Below, one piece after another: positions 22,912 to 33,395 of a DNA stretch of 64,000 bases. The stretch spans positions 359,404-423,403 of the forward strand of contig OY969110.1 in assembly GCA_963697995.1 (NCBI GenBank), read 5' to 3'. A model generated the notes under the pieces. That model was not told where the DNA came from and did not search any database. It worked only from the letters and a program-made list of their open reading frames with translations. The stretch's first letter is position 1, and each line of letters starts with the position of its first letter. The position numbers were made by a program, and so were the translations under genes. This DNA is from an uncultured Chlamydiae bacterium. GTDB taxonomy: Bacteria > Chlamydiota > Chlamydiia > Chlamydiales > JAJFMB01.

Positions 22912-23631
22912 ATGTCTTTCTCTCGTTTTCTTATATGTCTCATTTTGACAATCCCTCCTCTTTACTCAAATACTCTACCAAATCTATCAGAAGAAGAAGC
23001 AGTAAATAAATTAAAACGGATCCAATCAAAACTTGTCATCGAGGGTGGATCTTTTACCGAAGAGTATCCTGAGCAGCTCATGTCTGTCATGTTTATTTCA
23101 CCAGAAGATTGTGTTCTAGAGATTGGAGGCAATATTGGAAGAAACAGTTTGGTCATTTCAAAAATTTTAAAAAACTCAGATAACTTAGTTATTCTTGAAT
23201 CTGATCCAACAAATGCCTCAACACTTCTTGAAAACCGCAACAGAAATAAATTAAAATATTGTATCGAAAATGCATGTCTTTCCCAATCCCCTCTTTTCCA
23301 ATTGGGATGGAAAACTTACTGCCTTGAAAATGCCCCTGAAGGTGCTTTTCCTGTAAAAACAATCACTTATCAAGAATTGAAAAAGAAGTATAAGACTTCC
23401 TTTTCTGCGCTAGTTGCCGATAGTGAAGGGGCTCTCTATTACATTTTACAGGAAGATGAGACTCTCCTCGATGATGTTAGCTTAATTATTGTAGAGAACG
23501 ATTATGATGACATTACCCACTATGAGGATACTTGCTCAAAATTTATGGCTCATGGTTTTAAGTTAATTTACAATAAACCGGGTGGCTTTGCCCCTTGCTA
23601 CGATGTATTTTATCAGGTTTGGAAAAAATAG
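22912..23631 (+). CDS. FkbM-family-like SAM methyltransferase with N-terminal signal/anchor peptide
   Basis: N-terminus is MSFSRFLICLILTIPPLYSNT. The SAM-binding-like motif is CVLEIGGNIGRNSLVISKIL...LVILESDPTNASTLLENR. A later ADSEGALYYIL motif is typical of the FkbM type. Confidence 0.55.
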   Translation: MSFSRFLICLILTIPPLYSNTLPNLSEEEAVNKLKRIQSKLVIEGGSFTEEYPEQLMSVMFISPEDCVLEIGGNIGRNSLVISKILKNSDNLVILESDPTNASTLLENRNRNKLKYCIENACLSQSPLFQLGWKTYCLENAPEGAFPVKTITYQELKKKYKTSFSALVADSEGALYYILQEDETLLDDVSLIIVENDYDDITHYEDTCSKFMAHGFKLIYNKPGGFAPCYDVFYQVWKK

Positions 23632-23635
23632 AGTA

Positions 23636-24349
23636 CTAGTTTAAAAATTTACCGATGTTTAAACCGAACTCTTGTGACTTTGATGCATCAAAGCTTTCAA
23701 CGAGTGCCCCTGCCTCGAAATAATGAGCATTCTCTATAATTTGACTTGAAAAAGCCATATCTTGACTTGAAATCAATAATCCTTTTCCCGACTGTTTTAG
23801 CTTTAAAATGATTTGAATTAAGAGACTTGTGTTAATAGGATCTAAAGCTGAGGTGGGTTCATCGAAGATAAGAAAGGAAGGACCTAAAACTAAAGCTCTT
23901 GCTATTGCCACTCTTTGTTTTTGCCCTTGAGAAAGTTCATGTGGAAAGGCCTTGGCTAAAGAAGAAACATCTAAAGAGTCAAAGATCTCTTCCACTTTTT
24001 TTGTAAGAGTGTTTGGTGACTGCCTAAAGAGAACTTTTGGAACAATTAAACAGTTATCCATCACACTCATATGAGGAAATAAGGCAAAACTTTGGGAAAC
24101 AAAACCAATCAAAGAGCATCTTATTGCAGGCGTCAATAACGATAAATCTTTTTCCTCAAAACAAATACGGCCTGTATACTCTGTTTCAATTTGGGTAATA
24201 CACCGAAGAAGAGAGGTTTTTCCAGATCCACTTTTACCAAGAAGCAAAGTGATCCCCTCTTTTGGAATATTGATAGAAACATTTTTCAAAATGGGATGAG
24301 AAGCTCCCCTTGTTTTTTTTGTGAGAAACAATTTTTTTATACTTAACAT
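23636..24349 (-). CDS. Polar amino-acid ABC transporter, ATP-binding protein
   Basis: Walker A GKSGSGKTS, signature LSQGQKQRVAIARAL, Walker B LIFDEPTSALD. Confidence 0.85.
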   Translation of the reverse strand: MLSIKKLFLTKKTRGASHPILKNVSINIPKEGITLLLGKSGSGKTSLLRCITQIETEYTGRICFEEKDLSLLTPAIRCSLIGFVSQSFALFPHMSVMDNCLIVPKVLFRQSPNTLTKKVEEIFDSLDVSSLAKAFPHELSQGQKQRVAIARALVLGPSFLIFDEPTSALDPINTSLLIQIILKLKQSGKGLLISSQDMAFSSQIIENAHYFEAGALVESFDASKSQEFGLNIGKFLN

Positions 24350-25002
24350 GAAAGATATCTCTCCACTCTTCTTGCGACAAGGCTTAAAAGGCCAGACATC
24401 AAAAGATAAATTGCAGCGACAGCTAAATAAATCGGTATTGGTTCTAACTCTCTGGCTACAATATTCATCCCCATACGCGTTAATTCAAGCATCCCAATCG
24501 AAGAAACAATCGCTGTGCTTTTTAAAAGGGCATCGATCTCATTATTCAATGAGGGGAGAACTAAGCGAACCATTTGAGGTAAAATCACATAGCGTAGAGT
24601 CAAAGGGGTATTCAACCCAAGTACAAAAGCGGCTTCCCATTGAGAAACAGCAATTGCATTTAAAGAGCCTCGAACAATTTGCGCAACATATCCCGATGAA
24701 CACATCCCAAGAGCTACAACTGAAGCTGGAAAAAGATCCACATGATACCCTACAAGGTCTGGTAAAACATAATAGACAATCAAGAGTTGCACAAAAAAGG
24801 GCACCCCTCTTAAAACAAATGTCACCCCTTCGATAAAGGGTGAAATAGCAAAAATCTTTAATCTCTCACAACTCAATACCCCAAAAAAAGTGCCAAGAGT
24901 AAAACTCCATATCATGGACAAAAAAAACAGTTTTAAGGTCATCAAGGCGCCTGAAAGCAGCAAGGGAAACGATTCTAAAAGCAAATGAAAGTGGTCATTC
25001 AT
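24343..25002 (-). CDS. Polar amino-acid ABC transporter permease (His/Glu/Gln/Arg/opine family)
   Basis: Polytopic 219-aa protein with the EAA-loop-like sequence SQWEAAFVLGLNTPLTLRYVILPQ. It overlaps both neighbouring genes in an operon-like arrangement. Confidence 0.8.
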   Translation of the reverse strand: MNDHFHLLLESFPLLLSGALMTLKLFFLSMIWSFTLGTFFGVLSCERLKIFAISPFIEGVTFVLRGVPFFVQLLIVYYVLPDLVGYHVDLFPASVVALGMCSSGYVAQIVRGSLNAIAVSQWEAAFVLGLNTPLTLRYVILPQMVRLVLPSLNNEIDALLKSTAIVSSIGMLELTRMGMNIVARELEPIPIYLAVAAIYLLMSGLLSLVARRVERYLSC

Positions 25003-31578: not shown

Positions 31579-31682
31579 CTTTTTCGCTATTGATTTAAAA
31601 AAACTAAATTATTACGTTACCCAATCTTTTTCAAGAAAAAAGTTCCCTTAACACACCTGTTTATGATAGAATCGAAAATTTT

Positions 31683-32570
31683 ATGAAACTCTTTGATCTT
31701 TTAACGCTATTTTTTTTTGCGATCCCTGTTTTAGGTTACCCTCAGGTGGCTCGCTGCCCCTTTGATGAAAGAGGATTAACGCTCTATTATTGCGATATGA
31801 GACAATGGCAAGATTTTACCAATTTTGGCGATACTCTATCTATTATGGTTGTCGAGCGGCTTGTTGGGCATGAGATCAATACTACATTTAATAAATCATT
31901 CAGCTCGCAATACAACAAAAAGAAACTTTTGGCCATTGGATCAATTCTTCACGGAGCTGAGGACCACGATGTGGTTTGGGGAACGGGAGTGAACGGTAGA
32001 CACCCCAACAAAGATGACAAAAAAAATTATCGATTCAAAACACTTGACGTGCGTGCCGTGCGAGGTCCTTTAACGCGCCAATTTCTGATAAGCCTTGGGA
32101 TTGATTGCAAAGAAGTTTATGGGGACCCAGCTCTTTTAATTCCACGCCTTTATCCCGAATTTAAAAAACCGAAAAAACCGATGAGAGATTTCATCATCAT
32201 CCCCCATTTTATCGATGAGTCTCTTTTTGTAAATAACCCTCGCATGGTCAGTACGAAAGGAGACCCTAAAAAAATCATAGAAGAGATTCTCAATTCCCGG
32301 TTTGTGATTGCCTCTTCTCTTCACGGAATTGTTGTTGCAGAAGCGTTTGGAATTGCCGCAAGATATGTTAGATTAAGTGAATCAGAGCCCCTCTTCAAAT
32401 ACCAAGACTACTATGAAGGGACCTCTCGACCCGATTTTAAATTTGCAAAGAGTATCGAAGAGGCTCTTAAAATGGGAGGAGAGAGGCCCCCTATTTGTGA
32501 TTTAGAGAAGCTCAAAGAAGCTTTTCCCGCTGAGTTTTATGCTAAAGGAACAGCAATTAAGAAAAAATAA
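31683..32570 (+). CDS. Polysaccharide pyruvyl transferase family protein with N-terminal signal/anchor peptide
   Basis: N-terminus MKLFDLLTLFFFAIPVLGYP. It is followed by NFGDTLSIMVVERLVG, LLAIGSILH, VVWGTGV, VRGPLTRQFL and IASSLHGIVVAEAFGI, the PS_pyruv_trans pattern. Confidence 0.65.
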   Translation: MKLFDLLTLFFFAIPVLGYPQVARCPFDERGLTLYYCDMRQWQDFTNFGDTLSIMVVERLVGHEINTTFNKSFSSQYNKKKLLAIGSILHGAEDHDVVWGTGVNGRHPNKDDKKNYRFKTLDVRAVRGPLTRQFLISLGIDCKEVYGDPALLIPRLYPEFKKPKKPMRDFIIIPHFIDESLFVNNPRMVSTKGDPKKIIEEILNSRFVIASSLHGIVVAEAFGIAARYVRLSESEPLFKYQDYYEGTSRPDFKFAKSIEEALKMGGERPPICDLEKLKEAFPAEFYAKGTAIKKK

Positions 32571-32579
32571 GGTGTCGCT

Positions 32580-33395
32580 TTGAATAAACATTTAGTCAAA
32601 TGGTCTTTGCAAACACAAGAGGGTGATGGGGTAATCGTTGGGTGTGCCAACAACCACGAGTGGATGCTTCCCTGGTGGTGGCTCAACTATAAACTGCACA
32701 ACAACTACCCCGTGACCTTTTTTGACTTTGGCGACATGTCTGAAAGGGCGAAAGAGTGGTGCGAAAAAAGGGGCGAGCTTAAAACCTTAAACCTACCCGA
32801 TTTTGTCACCGAAAAGGAAGAGATTCACAAAGATCTTCACGTAGTTTGGGAGCCTTTAGTTTCACAGCTCGATGTTTGGGAAGCGCGCCTTCAATTCTTT
32901 AAAAAACCGTTTGCCTGTCTTCAATCCCCTTATCAAAGAACCGCCTGGATCGATCTGGATGCTCAGGTAAGGCAACCAATCGACATGATTTTCGATTTTT
33001 GTGAGAATTCTTATGGAATGGCCTTGGTTGAAGAGCCTCTTAGCGTAAGAGAGGAGCATGAAGCACTTCATTTACTTGAAAAGGGGGAGATTGAATACAA
33101 TACAGGAGTTGTTGTTTTTAAAAGAGGGGCCAAAGTGATCGAAGAGTGGGCCGAAGAGTGTTTATCAAATAATAAAGATGTAAGAGGTGACCAAGAAGCT
33201 CTCTCTCGCCTTTTTTATAAAAAAAAAGAGAAACTCCCCTCACTCCTTCCCTTTTTTAATTGGAGAGGAAATATGGATCTACCAAAAGAGCAGATCCAAT
33301 CGCTTGTCATTATTCATTGGCTTGGCGCTTGCAAAATATTTATTAAAAAACAGATGCAAGTGCTTTCTCAATGTGCCATCGATTTATCGCTATAA
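32580..33395 (+). CDS. Nucleotide-diphospho-sugar transferase (GT8-like), no signal peptide
   Basis: The DxD-like motif is AWIDLDAQV, followed by YNTGVVVFKRG and GDQEALS, typical of GT-A/GT8-like enzymes. The start codon is TTG and is uncertain. Confidence 0.5.
   Translation: MNKHLVKWSLQTQEGDGVIVGCANNHEWMLPWWWLNYKLHNNYPVTFFDFGDMSERAKEWCEKRGELKTLNLPDFVTEKEEIHKDLHVVWEPLVSQLDVWEARLQFFKKPFACLQSPYQRTAWIDLDAQVRQPIDMIFDFCENSYGMALVEEPLSVREEHEALHLLEKGEIEYNTGVVVFKRGAKVIEEWAEECLSNNKDVRGDQEALSRLFYKKKEKLPSLLPFFNWRGNMDLPKEQIQSLVIIHWLGACKIFIKKQMQVLSQCAIDLSL

Follow-up and report, generated by a model that had tools for sequence, protein, structure and literature searches.

In Chlamydia trachomatis, glycogen is handled in the lumen of the inclusion by type-3-secreted enzymes that use host UDP-glucose via SLC35D2 (PMC4829429, PMC9251005). 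This set consists of GlgA, GlgB, GlgX, GlgP, MalQ and the phosphoglucomutase CT295; the last of these acquired a type 3 secretion signal, and the gain correlates with the phenotype (PMC4829429, PMC9251005). Here we describe a 10-kb region within a stretch of 64,000 nucleotides (contig OY969110.1, positions 359,404 to 423,403, forward strand; hereafter the window) from an uncultured Chlamydiae bacterium, which best hits place near Rhabdochlamydiaceae/Simkania (72% and 68%). Five of the region's six glycan enzymes open with a segment that, by an explicit heuristic, resembles a Sec-type signal peptide and lies directly ahead of the catalytic fold. Based on the sequences, it seems likely, at a probability of roughly 0.6, that these five segments are functional Sec signal peptides exporting nucleotide-cofactor glycan enzymes from the bacterial cytoplasm. 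A preliminary description of the region had reported hydrophobic, signal-like N-termini on these five enzymes and none on the sixth, a GT8-like transferase, and the listing of open reading frames (ORFs) in the window, together with the heuristic, confirms this. All signal-peptide-like (SP-like) calls below were made with that heuristic and by comparison with homologues.

The C. trachomatis glycogen enzymes appear to be the closest precedent, in that the principle is the same while the system is not. The analogy had been drawn in the preliminary description, and it is apt (PMC4829429, PMC9251005). In both cases an intracellular bacterium would relocate carbohydrate enzymes that are normally cytoplasmic and feed them with a host nucleotide sugar, the latter being demonstrated for glycogen and predicted here. 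The glycogen enzymes depend on type 3 secretion, whereas the enzymes of the window bear Sec-type hydrophobic segments. The chemistry differs as well, and here comprises NAD(P)-dependent nucleotide-sugar interconversion by short-chain dehydrogenases/reductases (SDRs), transferases using 3'-phosphoadenosine 5'-phosphosulfate (PAPS), S-adenosylmethionine (SAM) and phosphoenolpyruvate (PEP), and Leloir glycosyltransferases (GTs). Lastly, the C. trachomatis case concerns a few Chlamydiaceae and has been shown experimentally, whereas the present one would extend over environmental Chlamydiota and Dependentiae.

Two of the window enzymes, an RmlB-type nucleoside diphosphate (NDP)-glucose 4,6-dehydratase and an NRS/ER-type 3,5-epimerase/4-reductase, would together make NDP-L-rhamnose. 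Only four NRS/ER homologues from bacteria, all of them in Verrucomicrobia, turned up in a survey of the nucleotide-sugar enzymes of plants in 2011 (PMC3220709). The predicted pathway has two steps, like the eukaryotic UDP-L-rhamnose route (RHM and NRS/ER in plants, UGD and UGER in fungi and protists, R141 and L780 in Mimivirus; 6VLO, 7JID). The eukaryotic and viral enzymes, however, are cytosolic and signal-less, and the dehydratase partner in the window is nearest to bacterial and archaeal RmlB, not to the N-terminal domain of plant RHM. With the bacterial RmlA-RmlB-RmlC-RmlD route the window shares an RmlB-like dehydratase and the predicted end product. It differs in that RmlC and RmlD are absent, one eukaryote-type NRS/ER stands in their place, and no RmlA gene lies nearby; moreover, the canonical Rml enzymes are cytoplasmic while the window dehydratase and NRS/ER bear signals.

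Enzymes of the eukaryotic Golgi and endoplasmic reticulum (ER) offer a further comparison, among them the heparan sulfate 3-O-sulfotransferases, Pvg1p, a membrane-anchored UDP-xylose synthase and type II enzymes of families GT6, GT47, GT61 and GT92. As with the window proteins, members of these same families carry an N-terminal hydrophobic targeting segment and need their donors in a non-cytosolic compartment. Most of them are uncleaved type II anchors with a stem, whereas the segments described here are short, of AXA type and almost stem-less. In addition, no nucleotide-sugar transporter was identified here, and the compartment would be the periplasm or the pathogen vacuole. Among bacteria, the glucose-fructose oxidoreductase (GFOR) of Zymomonas mobilis is a periplasmic Rossmann-fold enzyme that is exported by Tat as a folded protein with its NADP, and it is the only classical periplasmic NADP enzyme known to us. 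Unlike GFOR, the enzymes described here lack twin-arginine motifs and would gain their cofactor after Sec export. Literature searches turned up no account of rhamnose-pathway, sulfotransferase or Leloir enzymes with signals in either of the phyla Chlamydiota and Dependentiae, nor any proteomic or fusion data on the export of these enzymes. The arrangement had been proposed to be undescribed, which stands on this literature.

Enzymes of the region and their families

The genes of the region are as follows.

22912-23631, plus strand: FkbM-like class I methyltransferase (MT), 239 aa; signal-like segment MSFSRFLICLILTIPPLYS at 22912-22968
26712-27494, minus strand: PAPS-type carbohydrate sulfotransferase, 260 aa; signal-like segment at 27444-27494, directly before the binding loop
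27626-28624 and 28695-29570, plus strand: two tandem PPR-repeat proteins (PPR_2 E=5.8e-22 and 3.1e-15)
29545-30465, minus strand: NRS/ER-type 3,5-epimerase/4-reductase (rhamnose synthase; UDP/dTDP-4-keto-6-deoxyglucose), 306 aa
30412-30465, minus strand: NRS/ER pre-sequence MRLVLLFLILTFPSLSYS, residues 1-18; Rossmann strand from residue 23
30475-31578, minus strand: RmlB-type NDP-glucose 4,6-dehydratase; segment MYKVLSVLLLILCQSGLFGA(S) ahead of TGGAGFMGS
31683-32570, plus strand: polysaccharide pyruvyl transferase-like enzyme, 295 aa; signal-like segment MKLFDLLTLFFFAIPVLGYP at 31683-31742
32580-33395, plus strand: GT8-like glycosyltransferase, 271 aa; TTG start 10 nt past the pyruvyl-transferase stop
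27626-32570, strand not applicable: variable 5-kb block of PPR1, PPR2, NRS/ER, dehydratase and pyruvyl transferase

The ORF listing contains all six enzymes at the coordinates, and with the N-termini, that had been reported for them. One start needs amendment: the dehydratase had been read from GTG 31578 (367 aa), while gene callers begin at ATG 31572 (365 aa, MYKVLSV...). This ATG lies two codons inside the GTG, and the hydrophobic segment is retained either way.

The family calls for the sulfotransferase, NRS/ER, dehydratase and pyruvyl transferase appear solid on sequence grounds. The sulfotransferase matches Pfam Sulfotransfer_1 (PF00685; E=1.9e-20, 73.8 bits against a cut-off of 22), and its best PDB matches, at about 1e-26, are heparan sulfate 3-O-sulfotransferases. 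It keeps the PAPS loops 5'-PSB and 3'-PB (KGGTT and RNPVERAFS) and the 3-OST-like KELHFF (KExHFF). The NRS/ER-like enzyme shows Epimerase/RmlD_sub_bind domains in the Pfam search and matches the Arabidopsis NRS/ER structure 4QQR at E=2e-103 across residues 25-297, as well as the Mimivirus UDP-L-rhamnose synthase 7JID at E=1.8e-67; it reaches only 47 bits against TIGR01214 (rmlD), for which the cut-off is 224. Its motifs TGCIF, SFYSKTK and RMPI are kept; all three occur in 100 of 120 homologues, and they form invariant columns in an alignment of the family. A neighbour-joining (NJ) tree places the enzyme among Arabidopsis and eukaryotic sequences. The reductase had been proposed to be of the plant NRS/ER type, which the 4QQR match bears out, along with the finding that its closest signal-less relatives are eukaryotic polyadenylated transcripts.

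The dehydratase matches Pfam GDP_Man_Dehyd over its full length (E=3e-71) and TIGR01181 likewise (E=2.6e-94), the latter with 315.9 bits, under the cut-off of 365.1. Its best PDB matches are all dTDP-glucose 4,6-dehydratases (6BI4, 1.3e-72; 2HUN, 1e-68), with alignments that start at residue 22-24, and direct inspection of the window protein shows the YxxxK motif as YAASK. The pyruvyl transferase matches PF04230 over residues 97-226 (E=2.5e-14, 54.3 bits against 25.3). A sequence search of the PDB gave no match for it. Its AlphaFold model (pLDDT 90.3) has yeast Pvg1p (5AX7) as top Foldseek match, with E=1.1e-4 and probability 1.0, although the fold match is modest, with a TM of only 0.42-0.47. 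The GT8-like transferase passes PF01501 marginally (28.0 bits against 24.3, residues 116-252) and had no match in the NCBIfam search. For the MT, the Pfam search gave no credible match, and no PF05050 even at E<=1; TIGR01444 scores 30.4 bits (E=4.7e-7), under its cut-off of 37.7. An hhalign comparison with Pfam-verified FkbM proteins gives 97.3% probability (E=2.4e-11, 160 columns), and the MT is a divergent FkbM relative of the same fold that scores below the curated cut-offs. The assignments of the preliminary description hold for four enzymes and, marginally, for GT8, while the FkbM name falls below curated cut-offs and rests on profile-profile support.

N-terminal segments as additions to the fold

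The segments had been proposed to be additions to the fold and not the result of mis-called starts, and this is upheld by their retention in the nearest homologues and by the NRS/ER gene, which has no alternative start codon from codon 6 to the Rossmann motif. Alignments to solved structures begin at residues 23-25 in NRS/ER and 19-24 in the dehydratase. In the AlphaFold models, residues 1-20 of NRS/ER form a detached helix and coil of low pLDDT ahead of a fold with pLDDT near 95, and residues 1-30 of the pyruvyl transferase form a detached, low-confidence helix and coil before the fold. An AAGGTG element lies upstream of the NRS/ER, dehydratase and GT8 start codons. Mis-called starts are ruled out by the conservation in homologues, the lack of an alternative start in NRS/ER and these Shine-Dalgarno-like elements. 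The idea that the proteins are pseudoenzymes is likewise unsupported, and such a status is unlikely because the catalytic and cofactor-binding motifs are kept.

Anatomy of the signal-like segments

The anatomy of the segments was assessed on 95 homologues of NRS/ER and 97 of the dehydratase. Their n-region carries a net positive charge in 90 and 93 cases, respectively. The five window proteins all have K or R within residues 2-5 and, save for D5 in the pyruvyl transferase, no acidic residue ahead of the h-region, which spans 9-17 residues with a mean Kyte-Doolittle value of 2.2-3.3. Among the homologues, the median uncharged run is 16 residues with the c-region included, and only about 15% reach 20 or more. 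A small-residue site at -3/-1 is present in 90/95 NRS/ER and 85/97 dehydratase sequences. Specifically, candidate cleavage sites in the window are SYS/H (NRS/ER), GAS/K (dehydratase), AFS/Q (sulfotransferase) and VLG/Y (pyruvyl transferase), with a less canonical LYS/N in the MT. The median distance from the run to the fold is 5 residues in NRS/ER and 13 in the dehydratase.

Twin arginines occur in none of the five window N-termini, in one of the NRS/ER homologues and in two of the dehydratase homologues; a Tat signal is ruled out by this near absence. No lipobox was found in the five window proteins, and a lipobox-like motif is rare among homologues (5/95 NRS/ER, 3/97 dehydratase), which rules out a lipoprotein signal for signal peptidase (SPase) II. 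In their sequence features, the segments resemble Sec/SPase I signal peptides of the cleavable kind and not Golgi-type signal anchors with stems. The initial comparison to Golgi-style anchors is consequently not upheld, given the short runs, the -3/-1 sites and the linker. Cleavage would be favoured over tethering because in NRS/ER the first Rossmann strand follows the run after only about 5 residues. Whether cleaved or not, the positive-inside rule would place the catalytic domain outside the cytoplasm.

Distribution among homologues

The pre-sequence of NRS/ER is present in about 90 of the 120 closest homologues, right before the invariant FLVFGGKTGWIGQ motif, and that of the dehydratase in 95 of 120. 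Its residues drift from one homologue to the next, while the hydrophobic character stays constant. A scan of named genomes for NRS/ER gave 79 loci, of which 53 lie at 53-73% identity and 25 at 38-46%. Most of the 53 close loci bear the label Chlamydiota (Rhabdochlamydiaceae, Simkania, Parachlamydiales) or Dependentiae/Babeliales (Vermiphilus included); the other labels, which are automated, are "bacterium", five Pseudomonadota, one Verrucomicrobiae and one Promethearchaeota. Wherever both start and motif are readable in the close loci, NRS/ER has the pre-sequence, as does the nearby dehydratase, with few exceptions: the NRS/ER of the Promethearchaeota-labelled locus (L051) begins at the fold, and two dehydratases have weakly hydrophobic pre-sequences. 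In these loci the dehydratase usually adjoins NRS/ER on the same strand.

Homologues of free-living or non-intracellular organisms had been expected to start at the fold, and they do so in cyanobacterial and other sulfotransferases, in NRS/ER of Patescibacteria, archaea and proteobacteria, and in standard RmlB. None of the outcomes named beforehand as refuting the proposal was observed. In the 25 loci at 38-46% identity (Peribacteria, Peregrinibacteria, Woesearchaeota and proteobacteria), NRS/ER begins 1-2 residues before the Rossmann motif, and standard RmlB, at 342-346 aa, has no pre-sequence. Giant-virus copies of NRS/ER lack it in 78 of 79 cases. At 68-70% identity lies a signal-less NRS/ER group (MSFLVFGG...) from eukaryotes; the contig of one representative is a polyadenylated transcript. 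Inheritance of the signal from a eukaryotic donor is ruled out for NRS/ER, whose eukaryotic sister group is signal-less, and for the dehydratase, which is of bacterial RmlB type. Since both a bacterial RmlB-type dehydratase and a eukaryotic-type NRS/ER bear signals, the sequences argue for independent gains.

The sulfotransferase, pyruvyl transferase and MT share one pattern, with a signal in the nearest relatives and none in the wider family. Sulfotransferase relatives at 50% identity or more are all SP-like, including further paralogues in the same genome, while those at about 40% (cyanobacteria and others) begin at PDFLIIGxQKGGTT with no signal. For the pyruvyl transferase, the nearest representatives (50-58% identity) are SP-like and the bulk of the family is not. 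The nearest four relatives of the MT are SP-like, and others have a long transmembrane (TM) anchor or an unrelated N-domain of about 90 residues in place of the signal. MT relatives with such an N-domain or TM anchor were seen on giant-virus metagenome-assembled genomes (MAGs) and AT-rich lake-metagenome contigs (L084-L109, L113-L116). Taken over dozens of genomes, the signal on these enzymes appears to be a widespread trait of Chlamydiota and Dependentiae and not a peculiarity of one locus.

Within the window, the heuristic calls five of the six cluster genes SP-like, compared with about 9 of the 45 remaining ORFs (Fisher p=0.004); the latter encode envelope proteins of ordinary kinds, for instance a lipoprotein and a solute-binding protein. 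In the Chlamydiota loci, 74% of the members of glycan-enzyme families and 33% of the other ORFs are SP-like (p=3.5e-6); in the Dependentiae loci the shares are 85% and 71% (p=0.012). The Dependentiae isolate C. destructans has signal peptides on 44% of its coding sequences (CDS) and on 78% of its ankyrin proteins, and Sec was proposed as its export route (PMC6561590). The 71% background agrees with the 44% of CDS in that isolate (PMC6561590). Because the background in Dependentiae is so high, the argument rests on the contrast between lineages and not on local enrichment.

Genomic context

The six enzymes had been regarded as a coherent glycan toolkit within 10 kb, a view that the related genomes contradict. 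A BLAST comparison of the window proteins with the ORFs of the 79 NRS/ER loci recovered just two of them, the dehydratase in 37 loci and GT8 as a single homologue; this GT8 homologue lies 3.5 kb from an SP-bearing NRS/ER (L040) and is likewise signal-less. The MT, the sulfotransferase, the pyruvyl transferase and the PPR proteins had no homologue within 10 kb of NRS/ER in any of these loci. Within the window, an ABC-transporter operon and msrBA lie between the MT and the other enzymes. In a close relative of the window (L081), examined by tblastn synteny, PhoH is 93% and ribonucleotide reductase (RNR) 96% identical. The order there is RNR, an OMP-like protein (OMP, outer membrane protein), PhoH, ORF222, GT8, three sulfotransferases and MsrB, so that the position of the sulfotransferase beside msrB is conserved. 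Between GT8 and the sulfotransferase, however, L081 lacks the 5-kb block from PPR1 to the pyruvyl transferase. At L081 8452-9894, the GT8-like gene and ORF222 are each fragmented and the sulfotransferase is triplicated.

A conserved six-gene cluster is ruled out by the 79-locus comparison and this indel. Glycan gene content at this locus turns over quickly among related chlamydiae, and the conserved module consists of the dehydratase and NRS/ER only, the rest of the 10-kb region being a mosaic. A single product that is rhamnosylated, sulfated, pyruvylated and methylated is speculation because the region is not co-inherited.

Signal-bearing enzymes recur in other contexts. At another locus of the same organism (L199, 75-3122), lpxB is followed by three tandem SP-bearing sulfotransferase paralogues with overlapping stop and start codons. 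The genome thus encodes at least four SP-bearing sulfotransferases, three of them linked to lipid A synthesis, and the sulfotransferases of L081 lie two genes from a Kdo hydroxylase (Kdo_hydroxy) gene. Elsewhere, within 8 kb of the dehydratase and NRS/ER pair, there are SP-bearing GT6, GT32 (DXD/TcdA-like), GT47/RXYLT1-like, GT61 and GT92 proteins; GT61 directly follows NRS/ER in a Rhabdochlamydiaceae locus and comes two genes after it in a Simkania locus. Further SP-bearing neighbours of the pair are a CapD/PseB-type SDR, two FkbM families, DUF268, DUF1796 and two Methyltransf_24 families, one of which has a sub-threshold match to rhamnosyl O-methyltransferase/CmcI (RMNT_CmcI). Housekeeping neighbours are without signals. 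In a Dependentiae MAG (L016, 10001-11824), NRS/ER is fused to a weakly GT2-like C-terminal domain of about 300 aa behind a single signal. This domain is related to the SP-bearing 'AYNRPDFI' paralogues, of which five stand in tandem in Vermiphilus (L022) and one has a sub-threshold GT2 match; the fusion is a candidate Rosetta-stone link to a rhamnosyltransferase.

Proposed pathway and alternatives

If the segments are functional, Sec would export the enzymes to the periplasm, the cell surface or the lumen of the host-derived vacuole. In the first step, the exported RmlB-type dehydratase would turn NDP-glucose into NDP-4-keto-6-deoxyglucose, from which the exported eukaryote-type NRS/ER, with NADPH, would form NDP-L-rhamnose. 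As eukaryotic hosts offer UDP-glucose and not dTDP-glucose, host UDP-glucose is the most plausible form of this NDP-glucose, and a rhamnose module of the NRS/ER type is in keeping with such a supply. Plant NRS/ER accepts both UDP and dTDP nucleotides. In other genomes, neighbouring genes encode Leloir glycosyltransferases and methyltransferases that would likewise be exported, and these would use the product and decorate it. In the present genome, the separately inherited exported sulfotransferases (PAPS), pyruvyl transferase (PEP) and FkbM-like MT (SAM) would widen the repertoire. All of these enzymes would be fed by host UDP-glucose, NADPH, PAPS, SAM and PEP, and the scheme would be workable only because an obligate intracellular bacterium sits amid activated sugars and cofactors. 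As Sec delivers unfolded protein, the SDRs would have to acquire NAD(P) outside the cytoplasm, which is feasible only in a nucleotide-rich milieu. From the sequences we infer export, cleavage, the final compartment, the UDP or dTDP nature of the substrate, the host origin of the cofactors and the acceptor. For the last of these, the bacterial envelope, for example lipopolysaccharide (LPS), is slightly favoured because three sulfotransferases follow lpxB and the L081 array lies near a Kdo hydroxylase gene.

Several observations weigh against Sec export of the enzymes. We know of no free-living bacterium in which SDRs acquire NAD(P) outside the cytoplasm, and in vacuolar chlamydiae UDP-glucose, NADPH, PAPS, SAM and PEP would all have to be present in the lumen or periplasm. 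The sole glycosyltransferase in the window, the GT8-like enzyme, bears no signal. Possible internal starts exist at a GTG in the dehydratase (codon 26) and at codon 22 of the pyruvyl transferase. The high SP-like background in Chlamydiota (33%) and above all in Dependentiae loci (71%) weakens the local enrichment. At the catalytic triad, the dehydratase reads T-S-E where RmlB has T-D-E, as do most of its close homologues; this substitution is unrelated to export because signal-less close relatives have it too (21 of 22). Finally, the signal-bearing NRS/ER sequences form a single clade in only 17 of 100 NJ bootstraps. An NRS/ER tree had been suggested as a means of tracing a eukaryote or giant-virus origin; the grouping with eukaryotic sequences is recovered, and a single origin of the signal-bearing sequences is not claimed because of the low support.

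Chlamydiota and Dependentiae are both obligate intracellular. It is tentatively proposed, at a little under even odds, that these two unrelated phyla run a Golgi-like glycosylation outside their own cytoplasm, in the periplasm or vacuole, fuelled by activated donors of the host. Its parts would be Sec-exported SDRs that turn host UDP-glucose, with NADPH, into UDP-L-rhamnose, exported Leloir GTs of types characteristic of eukaryotes, and sulfo-, methyl- and pyruvyl-transferases.

An alternative that must be weighed, although it is considered unlikely, is that after Sec export the enzymes are released by type II secretion or in vesicles and serve as host-directed effectors in the vacuole lumen or host cytosol. 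Instead of building a bacterial envelope glycan, they might then drain or rewire host UDP-glucose, or rhamnosylate, sulfate or methylate host glycoconjugates. The signals themselves do not discriminate, being the same evidence in both cases, and Dependentiae appear to send most of their effector candidates via Sec signals (PMC6561590). The neighbouring GT6, GT32/TcdA-like, GT47-like, GT61 and GT92 proteins are typical of eukaryotic secretory-pathway and toxin glycosyltransferases, all of the needed cofactors are certainly present in the host cytosol, and the genes lie in variable islands next to eukaryote-like PPR proteins. However, no secretion system or host target was identified, crossing of the outer membrane would be an extra step, and the arrays of sulfotransferase paralogues with lpxB and near a Kdo hydroxylase gene point to the bacterium's own LPS.

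It is less probable still, and rather improbable overall, that the segments are uncleaved tethers which fasten the enzymes to the inner membrane on its cytoplasmic side, beside a membrane-bound machine for glycan assembly or export, with the chemistry cytoplasmic and the bacterium's own or imported nucleotide sugars as substrates. Such an arrangement would avoid the problem of cofactor supply, and chlamydiae do import host nucleotides and cofactors into the cytoplasm. The longest uncharged runs, those of at least 20 residues in about 15% of homologues, and the clear long TM anchors of some MT relatives would also suit it. The topology argues otherwise: with an n-region that is net positive in about 95% of sequences, the positive-inside rule predicts N-in/C-out, and past the run, acidic residues outnumber basic ones in 51/95 NRS/ER and 38/97 dehydratase sequences. 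Moreover, median runs of 16 residues, c-region included, are short for a TM helix, about 90% of sequences have -3/-1 cleavage motifs, and a linker of about 5 residues would push the Rossmann domain against the membrane.

It is very improbable that the segments are annotation artefacts with true starts downstream, or non-functional relics of eukaryotic secretory-pathway genes: the dehydratase, the sulfotransferase and the pyruvyl transferase do have internal GTG codons close to where the fold begins, the split glgC and RNR genes leave room for some indel noise in the assembly, and NRS/ER and several neighbour families are of eukaryotic type, but the open frame and its hydrophobicity are held in about 100 divergent homologues per family despite sequence drift, a comparative sign of purifying selection on hydrophobicity, NRS/ER has no other start before the fold and a signal-less eukaryotic sister group, the dehydratase is bacterial-type, and an independent assembly of the same sample gives identical genes.

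Other features of the window

The two PPR proteins lack signals, lie in the lowest-GC part of the window (33%) and have no demonstrated tie to the glycan enzymes. PPR proteins are typically a eukaryotic organellar RNA-binding family. They were noted earlier in a few bacteria, Simkania among them (PMC4029402). Two genes elsewhere in the window are broken. The glgC gene for glucose-1-phosphate adenylyltransferase (49865-51159, minus strand) is cut into three or more reading frames, namely 50740-51159, 50118-50756 and a different one that holds the C-terminal part, and is either a pseudogene or the product of assembly indels. Ribonucleotide reductase (37887-39918, minus strand) consists of two overlapping ORFs of 507 and 176 aa; its L081 counterpart is one 671-aa gene, 96% identical to the split copy. 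Together, the split RNR and glgC suggest assembly indel errors or ongoing gene decay.

In a 2520-aa ORF (8323-15885, minus strand), all that can be recognised is a weak match to AAA_22 and a short stretch resembling SecA_DEAD (E=1.3e-10). A protein of 1211 aa (17634-21269, minus strand) combines LVIVD repeats with Ig-like domains (He_PIG/Big_9), is hydrophobic over a stretch close to residue 1000, and is probably surface or adhesin-like. A complete 16S-23S-5S rRNA operon occupies 53878-58932 (minus strand), and ARAGORN found no tRNA gene in the 64-kb window, the 16S-23S spacer included. On the plus strand there are a DUF6088/AbiEii nucleotidyltransferase pair resembling a type IV toxin-antitoxin or abortive-infection system (827-1890; the AbiEii ORF is short, 142 aa), a full-length phosphoketolase (XFP; 44866-47304) and two adjoining paralogous Na_H_antiport_3 membrane proteins (59277-62098).

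Implications

In the textbook view, the nucleotide-sugar steps of bacteria are cytoplasmic and lipid-linked donors serve beyond the inner membrane, the reason being that there are no activated donors outside the cell. If the signals described here are functional, energy-parasitic intracellular bacteria have broken this cytoplasm-only rule repeatedly, and the enzymes that gained signals have bacterial, eukaryotic and possibly viral ancestors. The data also document that genes for methyltransferases and for the rhamnose pathway have moved among protists, the giant viruses of protists and bacteria that parasitise them. The glycogen system of C. trachomatis, the single case known from experiment, would then extend to a principle across two phyla. 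Glycans containing rhamnose, or methylated, sulfated or pyruvylated, would be expected on the surface or in the vacuole of environmental chlamydiae and Dependentiae. Moreover, a signal peptide on an SDR, a sulfotransferase or a Leloir GT would be a genomic marker of dependence on host metabolites. Overall, this would constitute a mode of glycan synthesis that is impossible for free-living bacteria and has so far been undescribed.

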